The position numbers were made by a program, and so were the translations under genes. From the NCBI GenBank assembly GCA_964626965.1, contig CAZVHB010000001.1:1818-65817 (forward strand): 64,000 bases of DNA, in the 5' to 3' direction. The DNA comes from an uncultured Candidatus Saccharibacteria bacterium (GTDB taxonomy: Bacteria > Patescibacteriota > Minisyncoccia > Phycocordibacterales > UBA9973). The first letter of the stretch is position 1. Each line of letters starts with the position of its first letter. Below, piece after piece: positions 11,625-63,599 of the stretch. A model generated the notes under the pieces. That model did not search any database. It saw nothing but the letters and a program-made list of their open reading frames with translations, and had not been told where the DNA came from.

Positions 11625-12095
11625 ATGATTAAAATCAGTAAAAAACATCTTATTCACAGCATCCTCGGCCACTCGTACCTCGCTTTTGTGGTATTTTTTT
11701 GTGGTGCTATATTTTTTGACCAGATTATTCCTATCACCCGATTAGATACAGCGTATCTTCAATATATTGGTGCGGCGCTCGTACTCTTTGGGACAAGCCT
11801 TATTTGCTGGGCTCAAGTTGATTCTCAGAAATCACTCCATGAAAGACATCAAGAGAAACCAGGAGAACAAGCTTTTTTCCATGGTCCATACAAATTTATT
11901 CGTACTCCTACTCAAGTCGGACTCTTTTTTCTGTTTCTCGGACTCGGTCTTACTCTTGGTAATGTTTGGGTGATTATTTTTTCAGTTATTTCAATCATCG
12001 TCAATTTCACTATCTTTGTAAAACAACAAGAACATATTCTTGCTAAACGTTATGGAGAGAGTTACATTTCATATAAGACAAAAGTTCACTTTTAA
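11625..12095 (+). CDS. Membrane methyltransferase of the isoprenylcysteine carboxyl methyltransferase / phospholipid methyltransferase family
   Basis: GPYKFIRTPTQVG matches the RHP..G-type motif, and there is a C-terminal E...L...YGESYISYK. Four TM helices. Confidence 0.55.
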   Translation: MIKISKKHLIHSILGHSYLAFVVFFCGAIFFDQIIPITRLDTAYLQYIGAALVLFGTSLICWAQVDSQKSLHERHQEKPGEQAFFHGPYKFIRTPTQVGLFFLFLGLGLTLGNVWVIIFSVISIIVNFTIFVKQQEHILAKRYGESYISYKTKVHF

Positions 12096-12098
12096 TCT

Positions 12099-12794
12099 AT
12101 GATTCACGTCATTATTGCTCCGGACTATGATTTTTTTACTAAACAAAAGGAGTCTCTAAAAAAGAAGCTTTCTCTCTCGAACGAATACAATGTGGAAGAG
12201 GTAAGTGGTTGTCCTCTCGTACACGCTGATTTTAGTGTGGAAGGTTTTTTTGAACGACCACCATATCTTCTCGTATATAAATATCTTTTTTCTGAAATTA
12301 GAGAGAACCAGTATGAAGAGTACATCACTGACTTGGCTCAAACCAAACACACGGTTCTTTTGTATGAAAAAACAAACAGTAAAGAATTTACGCAATTCTT
12401 AAAAGACCACAGTATTACTCCAGTAGAAGTAAAGACGGTAGTTGAGAAAAAAGAAGTCACACCTTTTTCTTTTACCGATGCAGTGATTGCAAGAAATAAA
12501 AAAGATGCGTGGATTGAATTTATGGCACTTCGAAACAAACAGGTTGAAATGATGAGCATTACCTCGGGTCTTATTTGGGCGATGAAGAGTTTACTCCTTG
12601 TTCTTACTCAAAAAGATGTCTCGAATACTGGGCTTAATCCGTATGTGTATAGTAAAATGAGTAAAAAGGTGAGTGTCTGGAAAGTATCTGAAGCACAGGC
12701 TTTTCTTCGAAGCTTACTGTACTTGAGTCTTGAAGAGCAATTCGATGAAGAAGCTCAGAGTATCAAATTAGAACAGTTGTTGTTTCAGTTGTAA
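12099..12794 (+). CDS. Hypothetical protein (possibly a divergent DNA polymerase III delta-like subunit)
   Basis: 3-nt gap after the upstream gene. No firm motif. The delta-subunit idea rests only on size and context. Confidence 0.3.
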   Translation: MIHVIIAPDYDFFTKQKESLKKKLSLSNEYNVEEVSGCPLVHADFSVEGFFERPPYLLVYKYLFSEIRENQYEEYITDLAQTKHTVLLYEKTNSKEFTQFLKDHSITPVEVKTVVEKKEVTPFSFTDAVIARNKKDAWIEFMALRNKQVEMMSITSGLIWAMKSLLLVLTQKDVSNTGLNPYVYSKMSKKVSVWKVSEAQAFLRSLLYLSLEEQFDEEAQSIKLEQLLFQL

Positions 12795-13013
12795 ATTCAC
12801 TGTCGACTTTTCCACAGAAACTATTTGCACTTGTTGTTTTTTTTAAAATATTGCTATACTAGAGAGAGTTCTTCTTTATTAGTAAAGAACTAAAGGTCAT
12901 TATTAAAAAAATAAGTGTACGATACGTTTCTGCCTACTAGAGAATGTCTTGGCTATAGAGAAGGTGTTTCCTAGTATACAATACATACGTACACAAAAAC
13001 AAATCATATATAT

Positions 13014-20481: not shown

Positions 20482-23481
20482 ATGAACACAAAAGAGTACC
20501 AAGAAGGTCTTGAAAAGCTTAATAGGGAGCAAAGATTAGCGGTTGAGTCTACTGAAGGACCGGTGATGGTTATTGCTGGTCCAGGAACAGGGAAGACACA
20601 AGTCCTCACGCTTCGAATCGCGCATATTTTAAGTGAAGGTCTCTCAGAAGCGTCTGGAATACTCTGTTTGACATTTACTCGCTCTGGTGTGTCTGCAATG
20701 CAAGCACGACTTGAAAAGTATATTGGTGTGACTTCTCGAGATGTACGAATCACCACGTTCCATAGTTTTGCAATTGATTTAGTTGAAAAACATTATGAGC
20801 TATTGGACTTTGAGAGCACACCGAAACTTCTTGAAGAAACAGAAGCAATTTTTTTACTTGATGAATTACTCGAGTCACATGCATGGGAGTATCTCACACC
20901 AAGGACTGATAAAACAAAATATTTTCGTGATTTGACGAATCTTATTTCATTTTTAAAACGAGAACGTATTACACCAACTGATCTCAAAGTTGAGATTGAA
21001 GGAGAAATCAAGACACTGATGGCTGACCCAGAAAATATTTCTTCTCGGGGTGCAACAAAAGGGCAACTTAAAAAAGAAACAGAAAAAAGAATCGATAGCT
21101 TGAATAGAACCAGTGAAATTGTAACTTTTTATACTGAGTATGAAAAACTCAAGAAAGAAAATAATTTTATGGACTACAATGATGTACTTGAGTATGCCGT
21201 AACACTCGTATCTGAATATGAAGATGTGAGATCTCTTGTTCAAGAAAGTTATTTATATGTGCTTGTTGATGAACATCAAGATTCAAACAATGTCCAGAAT
21301 AGTTTTTTGAAAGCTGTGTGGGCGGACAAAGATAATCCAGTTGAGAAGCCAAATATTTTTGTAGTGGGGGACGATCGCCAGCTTATTTATGGATTTTCTG
21401 GTGCGAATATAGATTATTTTACGGATTTTAAAACAAGTTTTGGAGGGTCGACTCGTATTGTGTTAGTTGAAAACTATCGTTCAACAAAACCTATTTTGGC
21501 TTTAGCTGACGCTATCTTACAAAGTACGCTCGCAACAGAAGCACTTTCGAGTAATAAAGAAGGGGGTGATAAAGTGTGTTTGTCTGAGTTTGAATATAAT
21601 CGTGACGAGCTCATTGGCGCAGGGTTGTATTTTAAAAAATTAATCGATTCTGGGGTACACCCAAAAAAATGTGCATTACTCTTGCCAAAAAATAGACATG
21701 TGAAAAATGCAACAACACTCTTTCGGGGTATGGGGCTTCCTGTTGTGTCTGAGATGAATGTATCTTTGCTTGATCTCCCTAAAGCCGAGAGTCTTATGGG
21801 GGTGTTGCAGTTTATTGCAGACCCAACAAATCCTTTGCTTTTAAGTGAATTGATACTTGATGAGACAAGTGCCATTCCACCATTGTTTGCTCATACGTTT
21901 TTGAAAGGATTTAAAAAAATAGACGAGCTTTCTGTGGACGCAATGATTCGACTTGGTCATGCTGATGGATTATTTGGTAATGAAAATCCGATTGCAGTGT
22001 TTGGAATGAAGCTCAACACTTGGATTGATACACTGACGTACGAACCCTTAACACACATCGTAAGTACTATTGGTAATGAATTACTTATTGAGCAGGCGTC
22101 CGATCATGATGACTTACTTGAATCAATTGAAATTGTTCGTACCTATATTCACAGCGCAACACTCTGGGAAGAGAAAAATAAGAATGCGACACTTCCAGGT
22201 TTTATTGAATATTTTAAACGGCTTAAACTATACGGAAATCAGGTTGCTGTTGCGCGCCTTGATAGTACAGAGGGGATTGCAATTAATACATTTCATAAAT
22301 CAAAAGGATTGGAATATGAATATGTGTGGATTGGTCATGTGAACGAAGAGATTTTGATGAGTGAAAAAAATACACCATTTACGCTTCCAGAAAAAATAAA
22401 AGAGAAAGTAAATGAGCGAAATGAGCTTACAACAAAACGAGAACTCTACGTTGCGGTGACACGCGCTGAGCGTTTTTGTACGATAAGTTATGGACTCCAT
22501 AAAGATGATGGAGTGGAGTTGAGTCTCGCGCATAGTATGAGTGACTTGGATCAAAATCATTTTATTCACACGACGAGTGTGCAGAACGAAGAATATCTCC
22601 TCTCTGAAAACCCAAAACTCTACGCATTAAAACCAGCAGTATTAGAAAATACTGAACTTACTCCACAAATACAAGCATTCGTAAAAGACCGTTTTGCTGA
22701 GACGAAAATATCTGTTTCTATGCTCAATAATTTTTTTGAATGTCCTTGGAAATGGTATTTTAGAAATTTCCTTCGTCTTCCAGAAACAAAAAGTGTTTCA
22801 CTCGCTCTTGGGTCTGTTGTGCACGGTGTGATTGAATATATTTTAAAAGCTGAAACACTACCGAGTCAGACACAGATACAAAAACAAATTACCTATCAAT
22901 TAGAAAAAGAAAAAATCACTAATATCAAAGATGCTACCCGTCTCGCAAAAGATGCAGAGTCCGCTATTATTCACTGGGTTGATACGTACTATACATCTCT
23001 TGCAAAAGACCACGTGTCTGAAAGAAATATTGCGTATAAAGATAAGCAATTTCCAAACCTGATGATGTATGGAAAAATTGATTTGACTGAAAGATATCCA
23101 GATGGAAGTATCGTGGTGACCGATTTTAAAACAGGTACCAGTAAGACGAGTGGTGTGATAGAAAAAATAACCGAAGAGGGAAGACTCTCGTCACTTTTGC
23201 GTCAATTGGCGATGTACTCATATTTAATCTTGGGTGCTGAAGGCGTAGAAGTGAGTGAATCTCGGCTACTCTTTCTTGAAGAAGATAAAGAAAATAAAAA
23301 TGCATTGTATAAAACACACGTAGAGAGAGACATGATAGATCTGCTTGTTAAAGATATCAAAGATTATCAAGATTTATTGACCAGTGGTGAATGGGTAACA
23401 CGACCTTGTACCGCAAAGTCCTATGGTTCGGGTTCTGAATGTGAATCGTGTGCACGGATTAATAAAATACTGAGTAAATAA
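20482..23481 (+). CDS. UvrD/PcrA-type superfamily-1 helicase fused to a C-terminal PD-(D/E)xK (RecB/Cas4-like) nuclease with a 4-Cys cluster (AddA/AdnB-like)
   Basis: AGPGTGKTQVL (Walker A), DEHQDSN, VVGDDRQLIYGFSGA. The C-terminus has CPWKWY...DGSIVVTDFKTG...RPC...SECESC. Confidence 0.8.
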   Translation: MNTKEYQEGLEKLNREQRLAVESTEGPVMVIAGPGTGKTQVLTLRIAHILSEGLSEASGILCLTFTRSGVSAMQARLEKYIGVTSRDVRITTFHSFAIDLVEKHYELLDFESTPKLLEETEAIFLLDELLESHAWEYLTPRTDKTKYFRDLTNLISFLKRERITPTDLKVEIEGEIKTLMADPENISSRGATKGQLKKETEKRIDSLNRTSEIVTFYTEYEKLKKENNFMDYNDVLEYAVTLVSEYEDVRSLVQESYLYVLVDEHQDSNNVQNSFLKAVWADKDNPVEKPNIFVVGDDRQLIYGFSGANIDYFTDFKTSFGGSTRIVLVENYRSTKPILALADAILQSTLATEALSSNKEGGDKVCLSEFEYNRDELIGAGLYFKKLIDSGVHPKKCALLLPKNRHVKNATTLFRGMGLPVVSEMNVSLLDLPKAESLMGVLQFIADPTNPLLLSELILDETSAIPPLFAHTFLKGFKKIDELSVDAMIRLGHADGLFGNENPIAVFGMKLNTWIDTLTYEPLTHIVSTIGNELLIEQASDHDDLLESIEIVRTYIHSATLWEEKNKNATLPGFIEYFKRLKLYGNQVAVARLDSTEGIAINTFHKSKGLEYEYVWIGHVNEEILMSEKNTPFTLPEKIKEKVNERNELTTKRELYVAVTRAERFCTISYGLHKDDGVELSLAHSMSDLDQNHFIHTTSVQNEEYLLSENPKLYALKPAVLENTELTPQIQAFVKDRFAETKISVSMLNNFFECPWKWYFRNFLRLPETKSVSLALGSVVHGVIEYILKAETLPSQTQIQKQITYQLEKEKITNIKDATRLAKDAESAIIHWVDTYYTSLAKDHVSERNIAYKDKQFPNLMMYGKIDLTERYPDGSIVVTDFKTGTSKTSGVIEKITEEGRLSSLLRQLAMYSYLILGAEGVEVSESRLLFLEEDKENKNALYKTHVERDMIDLLVKDIKDYQDLLTSGEWVTRPCTAKSYGSGSECESCARINKILSK

Positions 23482-23514
23482 AAAGCTGGGCGCCCAACGG
23501 GCGCCCAGCTTTTA
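23480..23514. terminator. Bidirectional GC-clamp terminator between convergent genes
   Basis: aaaagctgggcgcccaacgggcgcccagctttt. Confidence 0.8.
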
Positions 23515-39192: not shown

Positions 39193-39239
39193 GGGATTAG
39201 TAAGTAGTAAGTAGTAAATAGGACTACCGTGAACATAAT

Positions 39240-42681: not shown

Positions 42682-42724
42682 TATGGTATATATAATCTAT
42701 TAACTAGTAACTACGAATTAACTC

Positions 42725-47963: not shown

Positions 47964-48007
47964 GAGAGAATGCTAAATTCTAAATGTTAAATGCTAAAAT
48001 AGAAACC

Positions 48008-48045
48008 AAAACAGCAGGGCGCCAAAGGCGCCCTGCTGTTTTCTG
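48008..48045 (+). terminator. GC-clamp terminator (ACAGCAGGGCGCC-aaa-GGCGCCCTGCTGT)
   Basis: Same hairpin design as at 33797, 39240, 57183 and 60530. Confidence 0.85.
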
Positions 48046-54255: not shown

Positions 54256-56259
54256 ATGCAGAAACTCAATTTGCCAAAATTTACTTTTTGGAACAAAATC
54301 GCTAAAAAAATCTCTTTTATTAATATGAAGGAGGTAAATTCTCTGGTTGCTAAGTTGCAACTCGGAGAGATGTCTTTGTTGAATTCAATGGGGATTTCAG
54401 ATTCATTGGAGATTATAAATCGCCAAGAGACAATGAAGTTACTCAATAAGTACCCTGAACTTCGTAAGTTTATCATGAGGCATGACCTATCATCCGTATT
54501 TCCTGGTAATGAAATTTCTTTTTTGGATCAGTTTAATGTAAATTCAGAACACTCTCTTTTTGTCAAAAAACTAAAACACCTATTGGCTGTTCTTCGTAAA
54601 ATAAAACAAAAAGAAGGTCGTTTTGTCGGTAGTGTAAAAACTTTTTTTGATTTTCTTCAGGACAACCTCGAAGCTATTAATGTAAATGAAAATGAATTTG
54701 CTTTAGTTGCTGGTAAGGAGATTTCAAAAGGTTCATTTATGCAAGGTTCAGTTGATTATGATTTAACATTGCAAGCAAATGGTTATGACGTTATTAATGA
54801 TGCGTCATCCAGATGTTTTGGTCACAAGAGATATTCTTACAACGAAAGACTCATCACAATACCATATGATTGGTCAGAGTTTAAATGGTGGGCGTATCGT
54901 TATTTATTGCCATGGAACGGTGTAAGAATTTATTTACATAATTCCCGTGCCATGAAGGTCAACAACACAACAAGTATTATCGAAAAGACTCCTCCAGTTG
55001 TTATTGAAACAATACGTGATTTCTTGGAATATCGCGTTGTAAGTCCTATCTGGCAAGAGTTGGCGAAGACTTCTAAAGATTTTCCTGACTCCGTAAGATT
55101 TAGAATTAGGTGTTTATTCACGTATAATCATACGGGTCTTAAAGTTAAACTTGGAAGTATTCAACCTCTTGGGACTTCTATCGCTTCAAAAGAAGATTTC
55201 GCTAAAGTGTATCCATTTCTCAATAATGATCTTATTGGGTATTCAAAGGATAAGCTTGAGTCATTTAAGGAATTTTCTATGTCTACATATTCTAATCTTG
55301 AAATCAAGAACGGTACATTACAGGTATTGATGGCTTTCTGGAAGGCTCTCGAAGTTCAAAAAGAATATCGTAAATTGATTTATGATGGAATGATTATTGA
55401 GTCAAGAAATGTTGATATAGAATTTAAATTATTTTCCATGAAACAAGTCTGTGAATTAGAAGATATCAGTCCGTATCACCAAAATATTATGACAGTTCGC
55501 GATTTTATTGGTCATCATTTTGAAACTTTACAGAGCATGGCTAAGATGATGGATACATTCGCGGATAGGGCTCAATCTTGGAATCTACCGTTTAGCTTTC
55601 CTGACATTTTAGGTGAAGAGCATCATCTCATAGAGTTTTCAAAATTGTTGCCCGTTCACCTTATTAACAGAACAAAAGTTATTGGTGGTGATGAAGTGAA
55701 GATAAAACCAGACGATTTGGTTCCAATCACCATGCCTTCATTGAACGGCAGGATGGTTGCATTAACAGGTCAAAACGCCGGCGGTAAAACAGTCGCACTA
55801 GTTAGCTTGATGGATAACATTTATCTTGCTCAGTCTGGACTTCCTGTTTTTGCTGAATCATTTGCACTCAATCCAAAAGAAACAGTAGCAACTGTCTTTA
55901 TTGAAAAAGGTGAAGGTTCACTTTTGGAACTTGTACTTGGTAAAATTAAAAATGTTATCGAAGTGTCAAAAGTTTCGAATCCCAATAAAACAATTGTTGT
56001 TATGGATGAACTATTAAGTGGAACACAGGAAATGGCTGGTCGCGACTTGGGTGAAGAAGTTTTAAAGAAATTGAATACCATCGGTTGCTCAGTTATCTTT
56101 AATACTCAAATTACTGCTTTGGCAGAGTTTGCGGAAACTGATCTTAACGCATTGACCTTTAAATTTGATCTTGATCATCTTATTAAACCAGGCATAGGTT
56201 CTGGTGGTTCTAAGCGATTAGCAGATCAAATTGGTTTAACAGCAGTTCTTGAAAGTTAG
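54256..56259 (+). CDS. MutS-family ABC ATPase domain (domain V) protein with a ~470-aa N-terminal region of unknown function
   Basis: The C-terminus has VALTGQNAGGKTV (Walker A), VVMDELLSGT (Walker B) and KPGIGSGGSKRLADQIGL (MutS C-terminal HTH-like). No mismatch-binding or Smr domains. Confidence 0.6.
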   Translation: MQKLNLPKFTFWNKIAKKISFINMKEVNSLVAKLQLGEMSLLNSMGISDSLEIINRQETMKLLNKYPELRKFIMRHDLSSVFPGNEISFLDQFNVNSEHSLFVKKLKHLLAVLRKIKQKEGRFVGSVKTFFDFLQDNLEAINVNENEFALVAGKEISKGSFMQGSVDYDLTLQANGYDVINDASSRCFGHKRYSYNERLITIPYDWSEFKWWAYRYLLPWNGVRIYLHNSRAMKVNNTTSIIEKTPPVVIETIRDFLEYRVVSPIWQELAKTSKDFPDSVRFRIRCLFTYNHTGLKVKLGSIQPLGTSIASKEDFAKVYPFLNNDLIGYSKDKLESFKEFSMSTYSNLEIKNGTLQVLMAFWKALEVQKEYRKLIYDGMIIESRNVDIEFKLFSMKQVCELEDISPYHQNIMTVRDFIGHHFETLQSMAKMMDTFADRAQSWNLPFSFPDILGEEHHLIEFSKLLPVHLINRTKVIGGDEVKIKPDDLVPITMPSLNGRMVALTGQNAGGKTVALVSLMDNIYLAQSGLPVFAESFALNPKETVATVFIEKGEGSLLELVLGKIKNVIEVSKVSNPNKTIVVMDELLSGTQEMAGRDLGEEVLKKLNTIGCSVIFNTQITALAEFAETDLNALTFKFDLDHLIKPGIGSGGSKRLADQIGLTAVLES

Positions 56260-56276
56260 TTTTTTATTAAAAATGG

Positions 56277-56308
56277 TAAAAACCCGTCTTATTAGGCGGG
56301 TTTTTTTA
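56277..56308 (+). terminator. Rho-independent terminator
   Basis: aaaaacccg-tcttattag-gcgggttttttt. Confidence 0.7.
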
Positions 56309-56349
56309 TGTTATACTGTCTCTTATTACCCTTAATCATACATATATAT

Positions 56350-57141
56350 ATGGAACATCAAAAAACAACAGACGATTTATTTAAAAAAATAGGATGGTTG
56401 GTTATTGTCCTTTCTGTAGTTGGGATTCTTATCGGACTGAAAACTATCAAAGAGTTTAGCTTTATCGGCAAAGGCGCAAATGAAACAAACCAATTTTCCG
56501 TGAGTGGGCGTGGTGAGGCATATGCATCACCTGATGTAGCACAACTTACTTTTATCGTAGAAAAAGAAGCGAAAACAGTTAAAGAATCAAATACATTTGT
56601 TGATGAAAAAATGGCGAAGATCGTCTCATTTCTCAAAGAACAAAAAATTGACGAGAAAGATATCAAGACAGTAAATAATAGTTTTTACCCAGTGTATGAC
56701 TATCCGCAGTGTCTCATGTATCCATGTACTCAAACACAAAAGCTTCGTGGATATACCACAAGTCGAAGTATTGAAGTAAAAGTTCGAAGTATTGATAATG
56801 CAGCAGCTATTACAGAAGGACTAGCTATGCTTGAAGTGACCAACCTCCAAGGTCCAAACTTTATTGTTGATGATACTGATAAGGTTAACCAAGAAGCTCG
56901 AGATAAAGCGATAGAAAATGCTCGAGAAAAAGCTAACCAATTAGCAAAATCACTTGGTGTAAAAATTGTCCGTGTTGTTAATTTCTCAGAATCTACCGAT
57001 GGCGGGTATCCTCCACAGCCAATGATGTATGGGAAAGGTGGAGCTGATATGGCGGTCCTTCAGAGTGCTAGTCCAGAGAGTCTTCCGGAGGGGCAGAATA
57101 AATATATCTCAAACGTGACGATTGTCTACGAGATACGCTAA
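56350..57141 (+). CDS. SIMPL-domain (DUF541 / 26 kDa periplasmic immunogenic protein) protein
   Basis: FSVSGRGEAYASPDVAQLTFIVE...; C-terminal NKYISNVTIVYEI. An alternative start lies at 56308. Confidence 0.75.
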   Translation: MEHQKTTDDLFKKIGWLVIVLSVVGILIGLKTIKEFSFIGKGANETNQFSVSGRGEAYASPDVAQLTFIVEKEAKTVKESNTFVDEKMAKIVSFLKEQKIDEKDIKTVNNSFYPVYDYPQCLMYPCTQTQKLRGYTTSRSIEVKVRSIDNAAAITEGLAMLEVTNLQGPNFIVDDTDKVNQEARDKAIENAREKANQLAKSLGVKIVRVVNFSESTDGGYPPQPMMYGKGGADMAVLQSASPESLPEGQNKYISNVTIVYEIR

Positions 57142-57182
57142 CAAATAGTGTATAGGTTTTAGGTGACAGGTTATAGTATAAA

Positions 57183-57276
57183 CAGACGAGGTGTCCGAAG
57201 GACACCTCGTCTGTTGTCTATTCTGTATTTTCTGTACCCTACAACCTACCACCTAAACCCTCGCTCATGCTATAGT
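57183..57276 (+). promoter_or_regulatory. Terminator-promoter cassette 2: GC-clamp hairpin, then heptads (gtaccct acaacct accacct aaaccct), 9 bp, TATAGT, N6, ATG
   Basis: acagacgaggtgtcc-gaa-ggacacctcgtctgt; heptads 57234-57261; TATAGT 57271-57276; ATG at 57283. Confidence 0.6.
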
Positions 57277-57282
57277 GTCTGC

Positions 57283-58626
57283 ATGAATTCCGACAACACA
57301 CTCTTTTTCCAAACCCACCCTGAACTGAAAAATATTCTAGAAGCACACGGAAGTAAGACAATTATGGAGTATATTACTTTTGTGAATGACTTTATTTCAA
57401 AGGGTGATTTTTCTTTTTTTGACCAACGACAGGAAGATTTTTTTGCAGTGTATCAAGAAACACTGAAATCGATTTTTGACGAGCGTGTCATTCGGGAGTC
57501 TATTGAAACCCTTAAAAAAAATAGACTTATCTCTACTGCTGATCATCAAGGTGTCATCTCACATCCATTTTTTCTCAGTAGTACCTATGCTCGTACTCTC
57601 TATGCTCAAAAAGTAGGTCAGGGGAGTGTTGTGACTTTTCCGTGTGCAAGTATCTCTCTTTCAAATTCATCTTTTCCTCGAGGGCTTATTGTTCATGATC
57701 GTGATGATGTTGAGAAAAAAATATATTTTAAATCTCTCGTCCATAAACTCAATCCGGTCTTTTGTGAAGAAAAAATAGAGAGAGACGGTGTACAGAAAAT
57801 GTATGATACTCTCTCTTCAATTACTCTTGAGAAAGAAATGCGTAAAAAAATACTTTCTGTATTTAAAGATATCTTTTTTTCAGAAAAATTTCTAAGCTTG
57901 GAAAGTTTCGATGAACAGTGTACGTATGGGAGTTTAATGCTTTGGAAGTATGTTCCTACTTTCGAAAATATAGATCTCATCTATGTATCTCAAGAAAAAG
58001 TAGTAACTGATTTGATTATTAAAAAACATTTGGGTGGCGATACGCTGATCCACTCTCTTTTGTTCGATGAAACGTATCATGCACTTTTTGTAAGATATTT
58101 TGATGGAATTACTGGGGCATTTGATATACAGGCGAAGAAAGGTACGCAACTGTTTTGGGGTGTTCGCGCGCATGAACGTGTCGCACTTTTTATTCAAGAA
58201 AATAAGCTCATTGATAGTAATGGAGATATATTTCTAATAATAGAGACAGAAGAAATAAAAAAAGCATTACAAGAGAGGCGAATCATGCCGAGCATGCCAC
58301 TCGTTTTTATTGTGCTCTCTTTTTACTATGGTTTTGTCTGTGGTGGGGGATTTAGTCAGGTGGATTATCTGGGGTCTATGAAAAATGCCTGGATGAATAT
58401 GCTTCGTGATGTTGGAGAAAATAGTGAAACTGATCAAGTAGAAAAAATACCGACTAATATTTTGCTTGGTGACTATGCAACGATTCAGTCTGGAGATACT
58501 AAAAAATTGCGTCATGCTTTTCATTTAATCATGAAAGATTCAGCACATACTGAAGATATTAAAAAAATCTTCTTACAGAGAACTATATCAGAAGACATGA
58601 AAGATGGATTTACTCTCTATTTATAA
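57283..58626 (+). CDS. Hypothetical protein (448 aa)
   Basis: Long ORF driven by the heptad-type promoter. No recognisable domain. Confidence 0.5.
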   Translation: MNSDNTLFFQTHPELKNILEAHGSKTIMEYITFVNDFISKGDFSFFDQRQEDFFAVYQETLKSIFDERVIRESIETLKKNRLISTADHQGVISHPFFLSSTYARTLYAQKVGQGSVVTFPCASISLSNSSFPRGLIVHDRDDVEKKIYFKSLVHKLNPVFCEEKIERDGVQKMYDTLSSITLEKEMRKKILSVFKDIFFSEKFLSLESFDEQCTYGSLMLWKYVPTFENIDLIYVSQEKVVTDLIIKKHLGGDTLIHSLLFDETYHALFVRYFDGITGAFDIQAKKGTQLFWGVRAHERVALFIQENKLIDSNGDIFLIIETEEIKKALQERRIMPSMPLVFIVLSFYYGFVCGGGFSQVDYLGSMKNAWMNMLRDVGENSETDQVEKIPTNILLGDYATIQSGDTKKLRHAFHLIMKDSAHTEDIKKIFLQRTISEDMKDGFTLYL

Positions 58627-59268
58627 ATGTATTTTTGCCACATTTGTACGGATTGAAAACGTTTCTCCCTTTTTTGTGACTTCTATGATTTCACCAGTAG
58701 GTTGAATTACTTTTTGGATGCCTGTGTATATACTGAATGCGATACTTCCAGAACCACAACTTGTTTCTGTGACGAAGGAGTTAGTTTTTTGTACATAAAT
58801 AATTGGGAAGATTTGTTCGTCTTTGTAAAGAATAATTCCAAATGCGGGTAGTTTGTATTTTTTACATAATTGCGCCACCGTCTTTTTTGAGATGTCTTGT
58901 TTATTTTTTTTCGGGAGAATAACGAAACCAATTCCATCAAAAATAATACTATTTTTATTTTTCTTAAAAGGGAGTGTTATTGTAATTTTTGTATATTTTT
59001 TTGTATTTGTAAAAGAAACTTTTTCTTTTAATCCGCTTGCTTCGAGGTGTCCTTTTTTTCCGAGTGTTGAAGCAAAGGCAAGTACTGCATTGATGCATAA
59101 TTCTTCTCCCATCATGACGAGTTTCGGTTTTTTTTCTTTGTACAAAAAACCAACTTGCTCCACTTGAGTGAGCAGTTTTTTAATAGTATCTTTTTTATGT
59201 AATTCACCGTGTTCTGAAACAAGCGCGGTAGTATTACCTTTTGCTATGATAAATATATCTACTTTCAT
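58621..59268 (-). CDS. Diaminopimelate epimerase-like (DapF/PhzF-fold) protein, short form
   Basis: Two pseudo-symmetric halves with Cys-containing motifs, EELCINAVLAFA and ETSCGSGSIAFS, matching the DapF catalytic Cys positions. Confidence 0.4.
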   Translation of the reverse strand: MKVDIFIIAKGNTTALVSEHGELHKKDTIKKLLTQVEQVGFLYKEKKPKLVMMGEELCINAVLAFASTLGKKGHLEASGLKEKVSFTNTKKYTKITITLPFKKNKNSIIFDGIGFVILPKKNKQDISKKTVAQLCKKYKLPAFGIILYKDEQIFPIIYVQKTNSFVTETSCGSGSIAFSIYTGIQKVIQPTGEIIEVTKKGETFSIRTNVAKIHL

Positions 59269-59338
59269 CTTTTGTATATAAATATGCTACCGTATAATAC
59301 CATATTTTTAGAGAAATAGATTTTTCTGTGTTTATATG

Positions 59339-59425
59339 CGGAAGAGGGGAGATTCGAACTCCCGGTGCGGTTTCCCGCACGCCACCTTTCCAAGGTGGTA
59401 CATTAAACCGCTCTGCCACCCTTCC
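59339..59425 (-). tRNA. tRNA-Ser (anticodon GGA), type II with a long variable arm; CCA is not encoded
   Basis: RNA sequence GGAAGGGUGGCAGAGCGGUUUAAUGUACCACCUUGGAAAGGUGG...GGGAGUUCGAAUCUCCCCUCUUCCG. Anticodon loop UUGGAAA, T-loop GTTCGAATC. TATAGC lies 7 nt upstream. Confidence 0.85.
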
Positions 59426-59445
59426 GTTACTGCTATAGTAGCATA

Positions 59446-59988
59446 TTAGAGGCTGAAGACCTTGCAGACGAGTACCGTCACTGGGTCAATACTACAACTA
59501 TTTGCGAGGATTCCGCCGAGTGCGCCAGTCATCATGACTGAGAGAAAACCAGCACTTGCGAGTATGATTCGAACAGCTGTTTTTTCAAACAAGAAAATAA
59601 AACTGAGAAGAAATGCTGGGATTTTTGATCTGATGAGTGTGTATATTTTTGAGTTTCTCACTTGTGGCATATTCTCCATGAATGAAATAAGATATGATAT
59701 TGCAAGTACTAAAAAAATTGCCACAGTTATACTTGCAAATGTTTGATGGAGGTCGAGTGTTGCACGAAGGTGCATATCATTTCTGTTGATAATGTCTTCT
59801 ATCATCTCACCGGTTGTTTCTGAGAGAAATCCAGAAACAACTCCAGTAACGAGAAGTATTCCTTTGGTGACTTCTAAAGATTCTTTTTTACGAAGGTATT
59901 TTGACAGGGAGAGCATTTCTAAAAACGCATATAAAGAGAGCAGTGCAATAGGGAAATGGACGAGTAATAAGTGGTAGTTATTGTTCAT
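59446..59988 (-). CDS. Hypothetical integral membrane protein
   Basis: Five or six TM helices. Start taken at the MNNNY ATG (59988) to avoid a 5' overlap with ogt; the ORF track extends to 60084. Confidence 0.5.
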   Translation of the reverse strand: MNNNYHLLLVHFPIALLSLYAFLEMLSLSKYLRKKESLEVTKGILLVTGVVSGFLSETTGEMIEDIINRNDMHLRATLDLHQTFASITVAIFLVLAISYLISFMENMPQVRNSKIYTLIRSKIPAFLLSFIFLFEKTAVRIILASAGFLSVMMTGALGGILANSCSIDPVTVLVCKVFSL

Positions 59989-60010
59989 ATTCACATGATA
60001 CACTGTTTTT

Positions 60011-60430
60011 ATGATGCAAACAATTGAAGTTGAGACACCAATAGGGAAGATGACCGTAATGTCAGGTAATAGTACTCTCCTCAAAAAATACCAAAAAAAT
60101 ATAAAGAATTACTTTTCCAAGAAAAAGTACGATATGGATTTTGCTGATTTTGATATAGAAGGTACACCATTTCAAAAAAAAGTTTTGGAGGTACTCTTTA
60201 GTGTTCCTTATGGAGAGACTATTTCATATAAGGAACTGGCAAAATACGCAGGCAAACCAAAAGCAATTCGTGCTGTTGCGAATGTAGTTGCGAGTAATAA
60301 ACACTATATTTTTATTCCGTGCCATCGTGTGGTCGCAAGTGATGGAACACTTGGTGGATACGGTGCAGGATTTAAGAGAAAAGCGTGGTTATTGAGGCAT
60401 GAAAGTGGAAGGATTATAAATACTAAATGA
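60011..60430 (+). CDS. ogt: Methylated-DNA--protein-cysteine methyltransferase
   Basis: Active site IPCHRVV; HTH YGETISYKELA. Confidence 0.85.
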   Translation: MMQTIEVETPIGKMTVMSGNSTLLKKYQKNIKNYFSKKKYDMDFADFDIEGTPFQKKVLEVLFSVPYGETISYKELAKYAGKPKAIRAVANVVASNKHYIFIPCHRVVASDGTLGGYGAGFKRKAWLLRHESGRIINTK

Positions 60431-60452
60431 GAAATACGAAAAGCATAACAGC

Positions 60453-60494
60453 GGGGGGGGGGGGGGGGGGGGCGGGGGGGGGGGGTGGGTGGGG
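60453..60494 (+). repeat. 42-nt poly-G tract (interrupted by c, t, t) followed by A13
   Basis: gcgggggggggggggggggggcggggggggggggtgggtgggg aataaaaaaaaaaaaa, in a genome of ~35% GC. Confidence 0.9.
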
Positions 60495-60529
60495 AATAAA
60501 AAAAAAAAAATCAAAAAACCCAAAACAAC

Positions 60530-60616
60530 AACAGCGGGACGCCCTTCGGGCGCCCCGCTGTTTGATTTTTCCTATAACCTAATACCTATCAACTATAACC
60601 TAGCGCGTGCTATAGT
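60530..60616 (+). promoter_or_regulatory. Terminator-promoter cassette 3: GC-clamp hairpin, then heptads (ataacct aatacct atcaact ataacct), 9 bp, TATAGT, N6, ATG
   Basis: acagcgggacgccc-ttc-gggcgccccgctgt; heptads 60574-60601; TATAGT 60611-60616; ATG at 60623. Confidence 0.6.
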
Positions 60617-60622
60617 TTCTCT

Positions 60623-61402
60623 ATGCACACAGCACACAGTGTTAAAAAAATAGGATTCTATGATTCTGGATTAGGAGGACTCTTTTTAATGCACTATGTA
60701 CAAACAGTATTTCCGGGATACGAATATGTCTTTTTGGGGGATGAGAAAAATCTACCCTATGGTCCACGTCCTGTCGAAGAACTATTTACCTTTGCTCGTA
60801 CTGCTATCGATTTTTTATATGATAAAGAAAATTGCGATATTGTCGTTATTGCGTGCAATACGCTCTCTGCGACTGTGTATGAAACTTTGGCGCTCGAGTA
60901 CAAGGTAAAGCATCCTGACCGATTACTTATCGATGTCATTACACCGACTATCGACGCACTTGAGAAAGATACACACTTCAGTGTCTTTGGAACACTACGC
61001 ACTATTGAAAGTCATCTCTATCGAGATGGCATTACTAAAAATTTTCCTGACGCGAAAGTCGATGAGTACGTCGCGACTAATCTTGCATTGTTGATAGAAG
61101 AAAAAAGAGATACGACCGAATCAATCAGTTCTTTTAAAGATCAGGTTTATCCTCATCCTCATACGATGATCTTGAGTTGTACTCATTATGGAATAGTGGA
61201 AGATGTTTTTCGAAAGGTATATCCAGAGTGTTCCGAGATTATTTCCCAGCACTCAATCATAACTGATCTCTTTCGTTTCATGCTCCATCCAGGAGGTGAA
61301 GAGGTATCTGTGCGGATATTGGTGACAAAAGATAATCCAGTGCTTACTGCATATAGTAAAGAATGGTTTCCTTCGGTAGGGCCTGAAGTGATAAATCTCT
61401 AA
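60623..61402 (+). CDS. murI: Glutamate racemase
   Basis: IGFYDSGLGGL; VIACNTLSA; SCTHYG. Confidence 0.9.
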   Translation: MHTAHSVKKIGFYDSGLGGLFLMHYVQTVFPGYEYVFLGDEKNLPYGPRPVEELFTFARTAIDFLYDKENCDIVVIACNTLSATVYETLALEYKVKHPDRLLIDVITPTIDALEKDTHFSVFGTLRTIESHLYRDGITKNFPDAKVDEYVATNLALLIEEKRDTTESISSFKDQVYPHPHTMILSCTHYGIVEDVFRKVYPECSEIISQHSIITDLFRFMLHPGGEEVSVRILVTKDNPVLTAYSKEWFPSVGPEVINL

Positions 61403-61417
61403 ACACACTCTGCGCTT

Positions 61418-62002
61418 GTGTGGTATGATATCCAAGTAATGAAACCTGTTATTCCACCACATGCAAAAAAAGTCTTTGAAGGGATTATTTTTGATATTCA
61501 TCAGTGGCAACAAGAAATGTTTGACGGTACTACTGCGACCTTTGAACTCGCCAGTAGACCAAGTGTTGTCGTAACACTCCCTGTGATGGGTGATAAAATC
61601 TTGGTGGTTAAGGAAGAACAGCCGGGACGTCCACCGTATATTTCTGCACCAGCTGGATTTTCTGAGAAACAAGATATTGATGCACTCGCAACTGGAAAAC
61701 GAGAACTACGGGAAGAAACAGGCCTCACGAGTGACGACTGGGAACTTTTTGATATATATGAACTCTATCCGCGGATGAGTGTCACAGACGTAGTCTATAT
61801 TGCTCGTGATTGTAAAAAGACTCATGAGAAGACTCTCGATCGTGGAGAGCGACCTCTTGAAGATTTATGGCTGACGCTCGATGAATTTATTGATTTAGTT
61901 GATCGACCTGATTTTGCGAGTTTGTTTATGAAACATCATCTTGTTCGTGCAAAGTATGATCCTGAGTACAGAGAAGTTTTGAGGAAGAAAATTTTTGGTT
62001 AG
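61418..62002 (+). CDS. Nudix hydrolase (ADP-ribose pyrophosphatase-like)
   Basis: Nudix box AGFSEKQDIDALATGKRELREETGL. Confidence 0.75.
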   Translation: MWYDIQVMKPVIPPHAKKVFEGIIFDIHQWQQEMFDGTTATFELASRPSVVVTLPVMGDKILVVKEEQPGRPPYISAPAGFSEKQDIDALATGKRELREETGLTSDDWELFDIYELYPRMSVTDVVYIARDCKKTHEKTLDRGERPLEDLWLTLDEFIDLVDRPDFASLFMKHHLVRAKYDPEYREVLRKKIFG

Positions 62003-62003
62003 T

Positions 62004-62318
62004 ATGAAAAAAACTACAGCAAAATCAGATTTGTATGAGTTACCAAATCTCGGTCCACGTTCCATCGAACGTTTGGAAAAAATCGGTGTGACTTCGATAA
62101 AACAATTACAAAAGCATGGACCAGAAAAAGTCTATGACATGCTCTGCACTCATTACAAAACTCACATGCATATGGCGTTTCTGTACGTCCTCCGCTCTGC
62201 GTACTCGTATGCGAACGGTAAAATTGACCGAGATGGCGCATTACGCTGGTGGATGTTTCGTTCAGTGAAAGATAAAGACTTGGTTTTGCAGTATCAAAAG
62301 AAGTTTTGTAAAAAATAA
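62004..62318 (+). CDS. TfoX C-terminal domain-like (HhH) protein
   Basis: LYELPNLGPRSIERLEKIGVTSIKQLQKHGPEKVY matches the TfoX_C helix-hairpin-helix pattern. Confidence 0.45.
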   Translation: MKKTTAKSDLYELPNLGPRSIERLEKIGVTSIKQLQKHGPEKVYDMLCTHYKTHMHMAFLYVLRSAYSYANGKIDRDGALRWWMFRSVKDKDLVLQYQKKFCKK

Positions 62319-62342
62319 CACACAATTGGTGCGGACATACTG

Positions 62343-62825
62343 TTGTGGTATTATGGAGGTGAACCTAAAACCCCTCAATACATGTCACATAAAGTATCAC
62401 CCTATACTTCAGTAGAGCTCCATACTTCCTCTGTTGTTATCCCATTTTTTATTGATAGTGACGAATACTTCCTTTTTTGGGAAGGATCACACCAGCTCAT
62501 CGAAACAGCTGATGATGGCTTTATTCGTTATTTTCACTATTACGGTTTTTGTCTTGTTGAGCATCGAAGTCTTGAGCTTCTTGAAAAAATTCATTTTGAA
62601 TTAACAGAAGAAAAGTTGATCGAACATGGATTACCTCCGTATGTGAGTATCGTGCTCCCTTCACAGTGTGAATACAGTTATCCAAGTCCCGCTGATGACA
62701 GACGTCAGCGAAGACGGTATCCTGGTATTTTTCGTTCTCCAGCTGGGAGGACAGAAGGCGTTGTATTTTTTGTCGATGATTGGGATGGCTATCGTGCGTT
62801 TATTGTAAAGAAAATAGTAGAGTAA
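62343..62825 (+). CDS. Hypothetical protein
   Basis: ORF ending at a terminator. No recognisable domain. Confidence 0.45.
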   Translation: MWYYGGEPKTPQYMSHKVSPYTSVELHTSSVVIPFFIDSDEYFLFWEGSHQLIETADDGFIRYFHYYGFCLVEHRSLELLEKIHFELTEEKLIEHGLPPYVSIVLPSQCEYSYPSPADDRRQRRRYPGIFRSPAGRTEGVVFFVDDWDGYRAFIVKKIVE

Positions 62826-62829
62826 CTTA

Positions 62830-62870
62830 TTCCATAACCTGTATGTTGATACAGGTTATGGTTTTTTTAT
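62830..62870 (+). terminator. Rho-independent terminator
   Basis: ccataacctgtat-gttga-tacaggttatgg followed by ttttttta. Confidence 0.85.
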
Positions 62871-62909
62871 TTCTTTATAATTTGGAATTTATAATTTATA
62901 ATTGTTTGT

Positions 62910-63599
62910 ATGGCTCTAGTTAAAACAAAAAAAGAAATAGAAAACATACAAACTGCGTGTCAGATTACCGACGAGATTTTTAAAGAGGTGATTGTGTATG
63001 TGAAAAAAAATCGAGCGTGTACTGAGATTGAATTACAAAAATATATTTTACAACTCATAAAAAACAGAAATCTTCGCCCAAGTTTTCCGCCGATTGTGAC
63101 TTCGGGTTTCCGAGCAGGGAACGACATTCACCCAAAACCGACTGATAAAAAACTTGCCGGATTTACTATTATTGATCTCGGTGTTCGGTATAACGGATTT
63201 TGTTCTGATATGACTCGTACTATCTATGTAGGTGGACCAACAGAAAAAGAAAAAGAACTGTATCAAAAAATACTTGATGTGCAGTTGCTCGGTATCAAGC
63301 TTTCTCAGTCTGATGTGCGTTGTAGTGATATTGATGCGTCTGTGCGTTCATCACTTGATTCGCTTAAGAAATATTTTATTCATACCCTCGGACACGGTGT
63401 CGGACGAAAAATTCACGAAGCACCGATTATCTATGAAAAACGTACTAAGCCAGTTTTGAAAGATGCTATGGTGATTACTATTGAACCAGGTATCTATATC
63501 AAAAACAAGCTCGGAATAAGGATAGAAGATACGATTGTGGTCCAAGGTAAGAAACCGCTCATTTTGACTAAAACAACTAAAAAATTAATTTCTCTATAA
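62910..63599 (+). CDS. M24-family metallopeptidase (Xaa-Pro aminopeptidase / methionine aminopeptidase fold), catalytic domain only
   Basis: DLGVRYNGFCSDMTRT; HTLGHGVGRKIHE; MVITIEPGIY...GIRIEDTIVV. Confidence 0.8.
   Translation: MALVKTKKEIENIQTACQITDEIFKEVIVYVKKNRACTEIELQKYILQLIKNRNLRPSFPPIVTSGFRAGNDIHPKPTDKKLAGFTIIDLGVRYNGFCSDMTRTIYVGGPTEKEKELYQKILDVQLLGIKLSQSDVRCSDIDASVRSSLDSLKKYFIHTLGHGVGRKIHEAPIIYEKRTKPVLKDAMVITIEPGIYIKNKLGIRIEDTIVVQGKKPLILTKTTKKLISL

Follow-up and report, generated by a model that had tools for sequence, protein, structure and literature searches.

Contingency tracts of Neisseria, Campylobacter, Helicobacter and Mycoplasma are typically 7–20 nt long and lie in reading frames or promoter spacers. 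The tract considered here, which lies between ogt and murI in a 64-kb stretch of DNA (the window), resembles them in that it is a G homopolymer in a low-GC genome and in that its length or sequence apparently differs between two reconstructions of the locus. It is unlike them in its length of 42 nt and in its position ahead of a terminator in a 3′ untranslated region, where there is no gene to switch: the tract begins 22 nt past the stop codon of ogt (TGA, 60428–60430) and ends before the terminator, in neither a reading frame nor a promoter spacer. A preliminary description of this DNA had placed it immediately downstream of ogt, which is right as to the side but overlooks these 22 nt.

Another closely related phenomenon is technical. 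On two-colour Illumina instruments, G corresponds to no signal, A to both channels, and C to one channel, and the poly-G artefact of the NextSeq and NovaSeq is produced when an absence of signal is called G. The present tract is like this artefact in its long G run, its sporadic single non-G calls and the low-complexity calls that follow; moreover, an independent assembly does not reproduce it, as is the case for such artefacts, which are usually found at contig ends in public assemblies. The differences are that the run here is found within a 134-kb contig, where the synteny is correct on either side of it, and that its junction with the preceding sequence was seemingly present in more than one read.

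Two other systems are relevant. The sequence at 60530–60570 has the form of a rho-independent terminator, a GC-rich 15-bp hairpin followed by a U-tract, and is the near twin of terminators at 23481 and 48010; it differs from an ordinary terminator in that its 5′ arm and leader are present twice, as an exact 9-nt repeat and a degraded copy, with a low-complexity block between them. As for bacterial G-quadruplex motifs, the tract departs from them in its lack of conservation at orthologous loci, in its lack of a defined regulatory position and in its doubtful authenticity.

The tract contains 39 G in its 42 nt (Table 1). Its first run, which had been written as 19 G, is of 20 G and comes after AGC, and the tract is followed by AAT (60495–60497) and then by 13 A (60498–60510). 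Apart from small corrections, the poly-G and the A13 are present as first described, and the tract is far beyond chance, the numbers expected per window being about 6 × 10^-10 for runs of at least 20 G and 0.011 for runs of at least 13 A. The GC content of the window, which had been given as 35% for the genome, is 37.7%. The second-longest G run in the 64 kb is 7 nt long, the C runs are all shorter than 7 nt, and A runs other than the A13 do not exceed 8 nt; per 45-nt window, the tract reaches 40 G compared with 22 in the next most G-rich place. Across 180 kb of the lineage, it is about six times as long as any other G or C run. With respect to A and T, the longest run in each of the loci of relatives (L003–L018) is exactly 8 nt, and the window holds 13 A8 runs, one T9 and one A13, runs of 9 nt or more being mildly depleted compared with expectation. 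Two open reading frames of 51 and 54 aa span the tract; they have low-complexity translations and were not taken as genes.

Table 1. Features of the ogt–murI region (window coordinates).
Feature	Coordinates	Strand	Description
ogt (O6-alkylguanine-DNA alkyltransferase, 138 or 139 aa)	60014..60430	+	ORF; PF01035 on Logan contig; stop TGA 60428–60430
Left flank GAAATACGAAAAGCATAACAGCGGG	60431..60455	+	Looks like native 5′ flank plus start of terminator 5′ arm
Left copy of 9-nt repeat AACAGCGGG	60447..60455	+	Exact match to 60530–60538
G tract	60453..60494	+	G20 C G12 T GGG T GGGG; Logan contig L001 has at least 26 unbroken G, then ends
A/C-only block	60495..60529	+	AAT A13 TC A6 CCC AAAA CAAC; 33 A/C plus 2 T
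Intrinsic terminator hairpin AACAGCGGGACGCCC-TTC-GGGCGCCCCGCTGTT	60530..60562	+	15-bp stem with one mismatch; holds right AACAGCGGG copy, 60530–60538
Terminator U-tract TGATTTTT	60563..60570	+	From sequence and fold
Heptad-phased CTAnnnn repeats	60572..60602	+	CTATAAC CTAATAC CTATCAA CTATAAC CTA
Putative extended −10-like box TGCTATAGT	60608..60616	+	6 nt before murI ATG; kept as TGTTATAGT in L005
murI (glutamate racemase, 259 aa)	60623..61402	+	PF01177; homologues named glutamate racemase

The anomaly is wider than the preliminary description recognised. The G-only block and the A/C-only block that follows it (60495–60535) together form an 83-nt low-complexity segment, and 60495–60535 is itself the sole place in the 64 kb where a 30-nt stretch contains at least 28 A or C. 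At the borders of this segment lies a perfect 9-nt direct repeat, AACAGCGGG, the two copies of which (60447–60455 and 60530–60538) are offset by 83 nt. When the A/C block is compared with the left flank at 60412–60446 in the register set by the repeat, 21 of the 35 positions are identical, each of the other 14 being changed to A or C. Such a match is equalled at 105 of 127,852 window positions, and a composition-preserving permutation gives p = 0.004. A similarity in the same register was also sought inside the G tract and none was found, its three non-G calls differing from the bases 83 nt upstream. A 9-nt direct repeat might evoke the target-site duplication of a mobile element; this candidate was rejected, as the repeat is the only hallmark present. 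Neither an inverted repeat nor a real ORF is present in the 74 nt that separate the two copies, a homopolymer-like sequence for which the Rfam search returned only sub-threshold chance matches, with no family that fits.

The terminator that follows the segment has 11 GC pairs in its 15-bp stem and a 3-nt loop, after which comes TGATTTTT. A terminator pattern scan reported the 60530 hairpin on the minus strand only, and its reading on the plus strand comes from the sequence and the fold. The two near-twin terminators elsewhere in the window, at 23481–23513 and 48010–48040, have folds of −32.6 and −32.9 kcal/mol. Excision of the 83 nt from 60456 to 60538 yields a hairpin of −31.5 kcal/mol in the fold, that is, a canonical terminator directly after ogt. 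This version shares with its two sisters the architecture of an A-rich leader, a stem and a U-tract, and its left flank pairs with the U-tract side as in the other two. In the sequence as deposited, the left flank (ATACGAAAAGCATAACAGCGGGG) is 78% complementary over 23 nt to 60553–60575, which comprises the 3′ arm and U-tract, and the fold pairs it with these elements. On the basis of the repeat, the complementarity of the flank and the result of the excision, the low-complexity block is an insertion, whether real or artefactual, into the canonical ogt terminator. The leader-and-arm pattern of these terminators is common to the lineage: an A-rich stretch and then (A)CAGC(N)GGG(N)GCC are found in the window at 23481–23513, 48010–48040 and 60530–60562, in L016 at about 12725–12745, and in L015 at about 12195–12225. 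The terminators of the lineage look bidirectional and have near-identical energies of about −32 kcal/mol.

Exact matches to the proteins of this locus are on record only in the NCBI contig of 134,264 nt and in the Logan contigs of run SRR12712864, and the latter (L001, L002, L008 and L009) provide an independent assembly of that run. L001 corresponds to 56136–60479 of the window, matches the left flank at 99.98% identity, and ends in AACAGC followed by 26 pure G; the C that interrupts the run after 20 G in the window is absent. L002 corresponds to 60547–63303, matches the right flank at 100% identity, and has its first base inside the hairpin, in the loop. The Logan assembly lacks the intervening 67 nt; it breaks on both sides of the tract and does not reproduce it as deposited. 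The difference in length and sequence, G≥26 in L001 versus G20-C-G12 in the window, fits either sequencing error or real variation. That the first run of 20 G equals k − 1 for k = 21 would fit a graph join via a poly-G node; this coincidence was given no weight.

A simple explanation for the break would be a loss of signal induced by the hairpin. However, L008 and L009 cross the other two GC-rich terminators, which are equally stable, cleanly and at 100% identity, and this explanation was rejected as a sufficient cause. With other hairpins of SRR12712864 assembled without error, the failure concerns the ogt locus in particular and is not a general effect of hairpins. The Logan contigs are only 2.7–4.3 kb long, and the other ends of L001 and L002 fall in ordinary coding sequence, so that this organism has a low coverage in SRR12712864. 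Logan, we presume, keeps k-mers that are seen at least twice; if this threshold is right, L001, which needs the k-mer ACAGC plus 26 G, implies at least two reads with that junction. A competing branch, in which AACAGCGGG would be joined to ACGCC, did not survive in the Logan assembly. A literature search found no paper that mentions SRR12712864 or neighbouring accessions, and nothing specific on poly-G assembly artefacts.

The homologues of MurI belong to CPR/Patescibacteria and lie near Paceibacteria and Nomurabacteria. A search of GTDB genomes and JGI metagenomes with MurI and the exact terminator found no relative or other sample of the species, and the comparison was made with the loci around more distant homologues of MurI, taken one by one. 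The nearest of these relatives, L003, has a MurI identity of 76% and a different gene upstream. L005, L016 and L018 share the gene order ogt, NUDIX, murI and then NUDIX, TfoX_C and M24 genes, and PF01035 is also present in their ogt orthologues. L005 has ogt, a terminator and then a promoter to which 60585–60625 of the window (CTATCAACTATAACCT...TGCTATAGTTTCTCTATG) is homologous. The two flanks of the tract are accordingly parts of a single locus in the correct order, which all but rules out a join of unrelated contigs. A G run is absent after ogt in L005, L016 and L018, and the 116 kb of relatives contain no G or C runs of 8 nt or more except at one site in L005. The natural terminators of these relatives have A-rich leaders, such as AAAACAACAGCTGGG in L016 and AATAAATAGATAAATA in L005.

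The region between the terminator and murI had been described as part of a promoter cassette at 60530–60616; it resolves into three parts, namely the terminator hairpin, the heptad-repeat block and the −10-like box, the function of the latter being suggested by its sequence. With only 6 nt from TGCTATAGT to the ATG, murI appears to have a leaderless mRNA. A NUDIX gene is found directly upstream of murI in L005, L015, L016 and L018, and also in L003 to judge by its upstream reading frame. The window lacks this NUDIX gene; the promoter of the latter now precedes murI, whose start codon coincides in position with that of NUDIX (60563–60625; 8905–8965 in L005). Arrays of at least four CTAnnnn heptads number 11 in the window, compared with an expectation of 0.17 from shuffles, and include those at 39198–39221(−), 42690–42720(+), 47973–47996(+), 57139–57176(−), 57232–57262(+) and 60572–60602(+), of which those at 47973 and 60572 are intergenic. 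The block at 60572 has a partly conserved counterpart in front of the NUDIX gene of L005, where there is a similar array, CTAACAA CTATAAA CTCATGT. These arrays may be a lineage-specific element located upstream of promoters or involved in binding.

The exceptional site in L005 (GCA_964565825.1, CAZMGK010000001.1) is at 12733–12855 and lies inside an inverted repeat of the terminator type, with the arms AAACACAAGAGTGGC and GCCACTCTTGTGTTT. Its order is arm, G15, N10, 49 nt, C9 G C8, arm. From either arm outwards, it goes in turn through a G-run, a mixed sequence, an A-run and an A/C-rich sequence, which is the progression seen in the window. L006, a Logan contig from run SRR12762287 and from the organism of L005, stops exactly at the left arm, and the homologous sites in L015, L016 and L018 are plain terminators. 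The idea that the 49-nt filler is a degraded copy of the neighbouring sequence was abandoned, the local alignment score being 14 compared with a shuffle mean of 16.5, which is not significant. This site is either a technical failure of the same kind as that in the window or a real hairpin formed by a G-run and a C-run.

A base rate for long G runs was obtained from IMG/VR, in which the first 120 matching contigs listed contain 131 runs of at least 26 G. Among these matches, 99 of the 131 runs lie 150 nt or less from the end of a contig or locus, and the other 32 are internal. The signature of a G-run followed by an A-run was found in five contigs, two of which (L011 and L014) are clean contig-end tails; the evidence from this signature is weak because there are only five contigs and because the blocks of two others, L010 and L012, may be real. 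These two (UViG_3300008418_000060 and 3300014502_000158) come from unrelated samples and are small, phage-like contigs of about 9.4–9.5 kb with 45% GC. Each has homopolymer blocks about 60–80 nt from one end (T29 C21 G15; A13, T20, C17, T25), at 1–130 in L010 and 1–160 in L012, and L010 has an additional internal T28. These blocks may be terminal features of a small phage group, or they may be junk. Another IMG/VR contig, L013 (UViG_3300009285_004584), has an internal site at 11880–11960, just upstream of a ribosome-binding site and gene start, with a terminator hairpin, T12, CCCAT and C16; its opposite strand reads G-run, A-run, hairpin, like the window. Either a real phase-variable tract or another instance of the artefact could account for the L013 site.

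Our favoured interpretation, to which we assign a probability of about 0.6, is that the tract as written is not genomic and that it consists of poly-G from a dark channel, or of otherwise unreliable base calls, built in during assembly. Dark cycles, called G under a presumed two-colour chemistry, would open the block, and A/C-biased calls would continue it. These failed calls would have been incorporated by the assembler at a low-coverage spot in the ogt terminator, where genuine reads of the left flank that run into poly-G would have been linked to a degraded read that covers the same flank again. The true sequence would then be ...GAAAAGCATAACAGCGGGACGCCCTTCGGGCGCCCCGCTGTTTGATTTTT..., that is, ogt, 16 nt and an ordinary terminator; the direct junction between ogt and the terminator in the 83-nt deletion model would be CATAACAGCGGGACGCCCTTCGGG, and ogt joined straight to the terminator would read CATAACAGCGGGACGCCC.

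Several observations support an artefact of this sort. The two successive blocks, 42 nt of the G-only type and about 40 nt of the A/C-only type, are each unique in the 64 kb; excision restores a terminator that matches its sisters in both shape and energy; the in-register copy is biased towards A and C, as channel-biased copying would give; and the two assemblies disagree on the interior of the tract. To these can be added the parallel in L005, which is beside a scaffold gap, the lack of conservation in relatives, the rarity of real G runs of this length and the IMG/VR base rate, in which most of the long G runs listed are near contig ends. The two-colour origin proposed in the preliminary description is thus favoured by the composition, the excision and the disagreement between assemblies, but the repeated junction points the other way: AACAGC followed by 26 G was apparently present in at least two reads, and a real G run would give such locus-specific repeats. 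Also counting against an artefact is the right edge, GGGGAATAAAAAAAAAAAAATC (reverse complement GATTTTTTTTTTTTTATTCCCC) or GGGGAATAAAAA, which must exist in some read, and it is unusual for a read to recover after a dark start. This explanation is at its weakest for the link between the junk and the right flank. The right-hand part may, for its part, be genuine, since its A-rich stretch resembles the natural terminator leaders of L016 and L005.

The main competitor of the artefact, which we consider possible but clearly the less probable account, is that the tract is a real, hypervariable homopolymer of perhaps 40 G or so, capable of forming G-quadruplexes and located in the 3′ untranslated region of ogt upstream of the terminator, where slippage, or else an insertion with duplication of AACAGCGGG, would have produced it recently in this lineage. 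The assemblies would then disagree because of length variation or difficulty in sequencing. This explanation accommodates the two or more reads that the presumed Logan threshold would imply, with no alternative branch, and the clean assembly of the other hairpins in SRR12712864, which makes the failure locus-specific; a lower coverage beside a G4-forming tract would also explain why L002 starts 52 nt to the right. The G-quadruplex motif is present on paper, internal runs of at least 26 G do occur in public contigs (32 of the 131 among the matches listed), and L005 could be a second real case, its G run and C run being the stem of a hairpin. A real tract would, however, be some six times longer than the other G or C runs in 180 kb of the lineage and conserved in no relative; it would need a second anomaly right beside it, the A13 with its A/C-only block, along with a repeat that diverges only to A and C; the assemblies give different versions of it, G26 or more in one and G20-C in the other; and its position upstream of a terminator offers no obvious target for phase variation.

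A third account, and an improbable one, is that poly-G tails fill a short gap in coverage, such that the flanks, including the AAT, the A13 and the A/C leader, are genuine and the real sequence at about 60452–60495 has been replaced. Low coverage, as indicated by the size of the Logan contigs and by their other ends in ordinary coding sequence, and the likeness of the A-rich leader to those of the relatives are in keeping with this, but it leaves unexplained the 9-nt repeat, the in-register similarity and the restoration of the terminator by an exact deletion of 83 nt, and the A13 and A/C-only block remain as oddities. The preliminary description had also raised the possibility that the tract marks a mis-join or a contig end. 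A break at the tract is indeed seen in the independent assembly, assembly graphs have hubs at poly-G k-mers, and most of the long G runs in the public contigs listed are at ends; a chimera in which unrelated contigs were glued via shared poly-G k-mers is nevertheless very improbable, given that the gene order across the tract agrees with that in L005, L016 and L018, that 60585–60625 is homologous to the promoter after ogt in L005, and that L001 and L002, which match the two flanks almost perfectly or perfectly, both come from SRR12712864.

What the tract might do, should it exist, can also be considered. The motif G≥3 N1–7, four times over, is found many times along it, and the ViennaRNA fold, run with G-quadruplexes enabled, stacks quadruplexes along its length, which is a prediction at the level of the sequence. 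The strand on which the tract reads as G is the sense strand of ogt. The earlier proposal that a G-quadruplex here modulates the expression of murI is weakened by the presence of the terminator (60530–60562) and its U-tract between the tract and the −10-like box of murI, and control of murI by the tract is therefore unlikely. Effects on the formation or stability of the 3′ end of the ogt transcript, or on replication, are more plausible for a real tract than an effect on the murI promoter.

If the tract is an artefact, the deposited 134-kb contig carries about 83 nt of invented sequence in a terminator, and the sister assembly fails alike; scans for G-quadruplexes, contingency loci and unusual repeats in such assemblies should then filter these sites. 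That a member of the CPR/Patescibacteria has instead a genuine, hypervariable, G-quadruplex-forming homopolymer of about 40 nt, together with an A13, in the 5′ arm of its ogt terminator is doubtful. If real, the tract would rank with the longest G homopolymers on record in bacterial genomes, with an unusual terminator structure in a lineage of reduced genomes, and its origin might be template-independent synthesis or extreme slippage. In view of the G-run and C-run structure of L005, the lineage would then be characterised by long G/C homopolymers at its terminators, and such tracts could affect the formation of transcript 3′ ends or act as barriers to replication.
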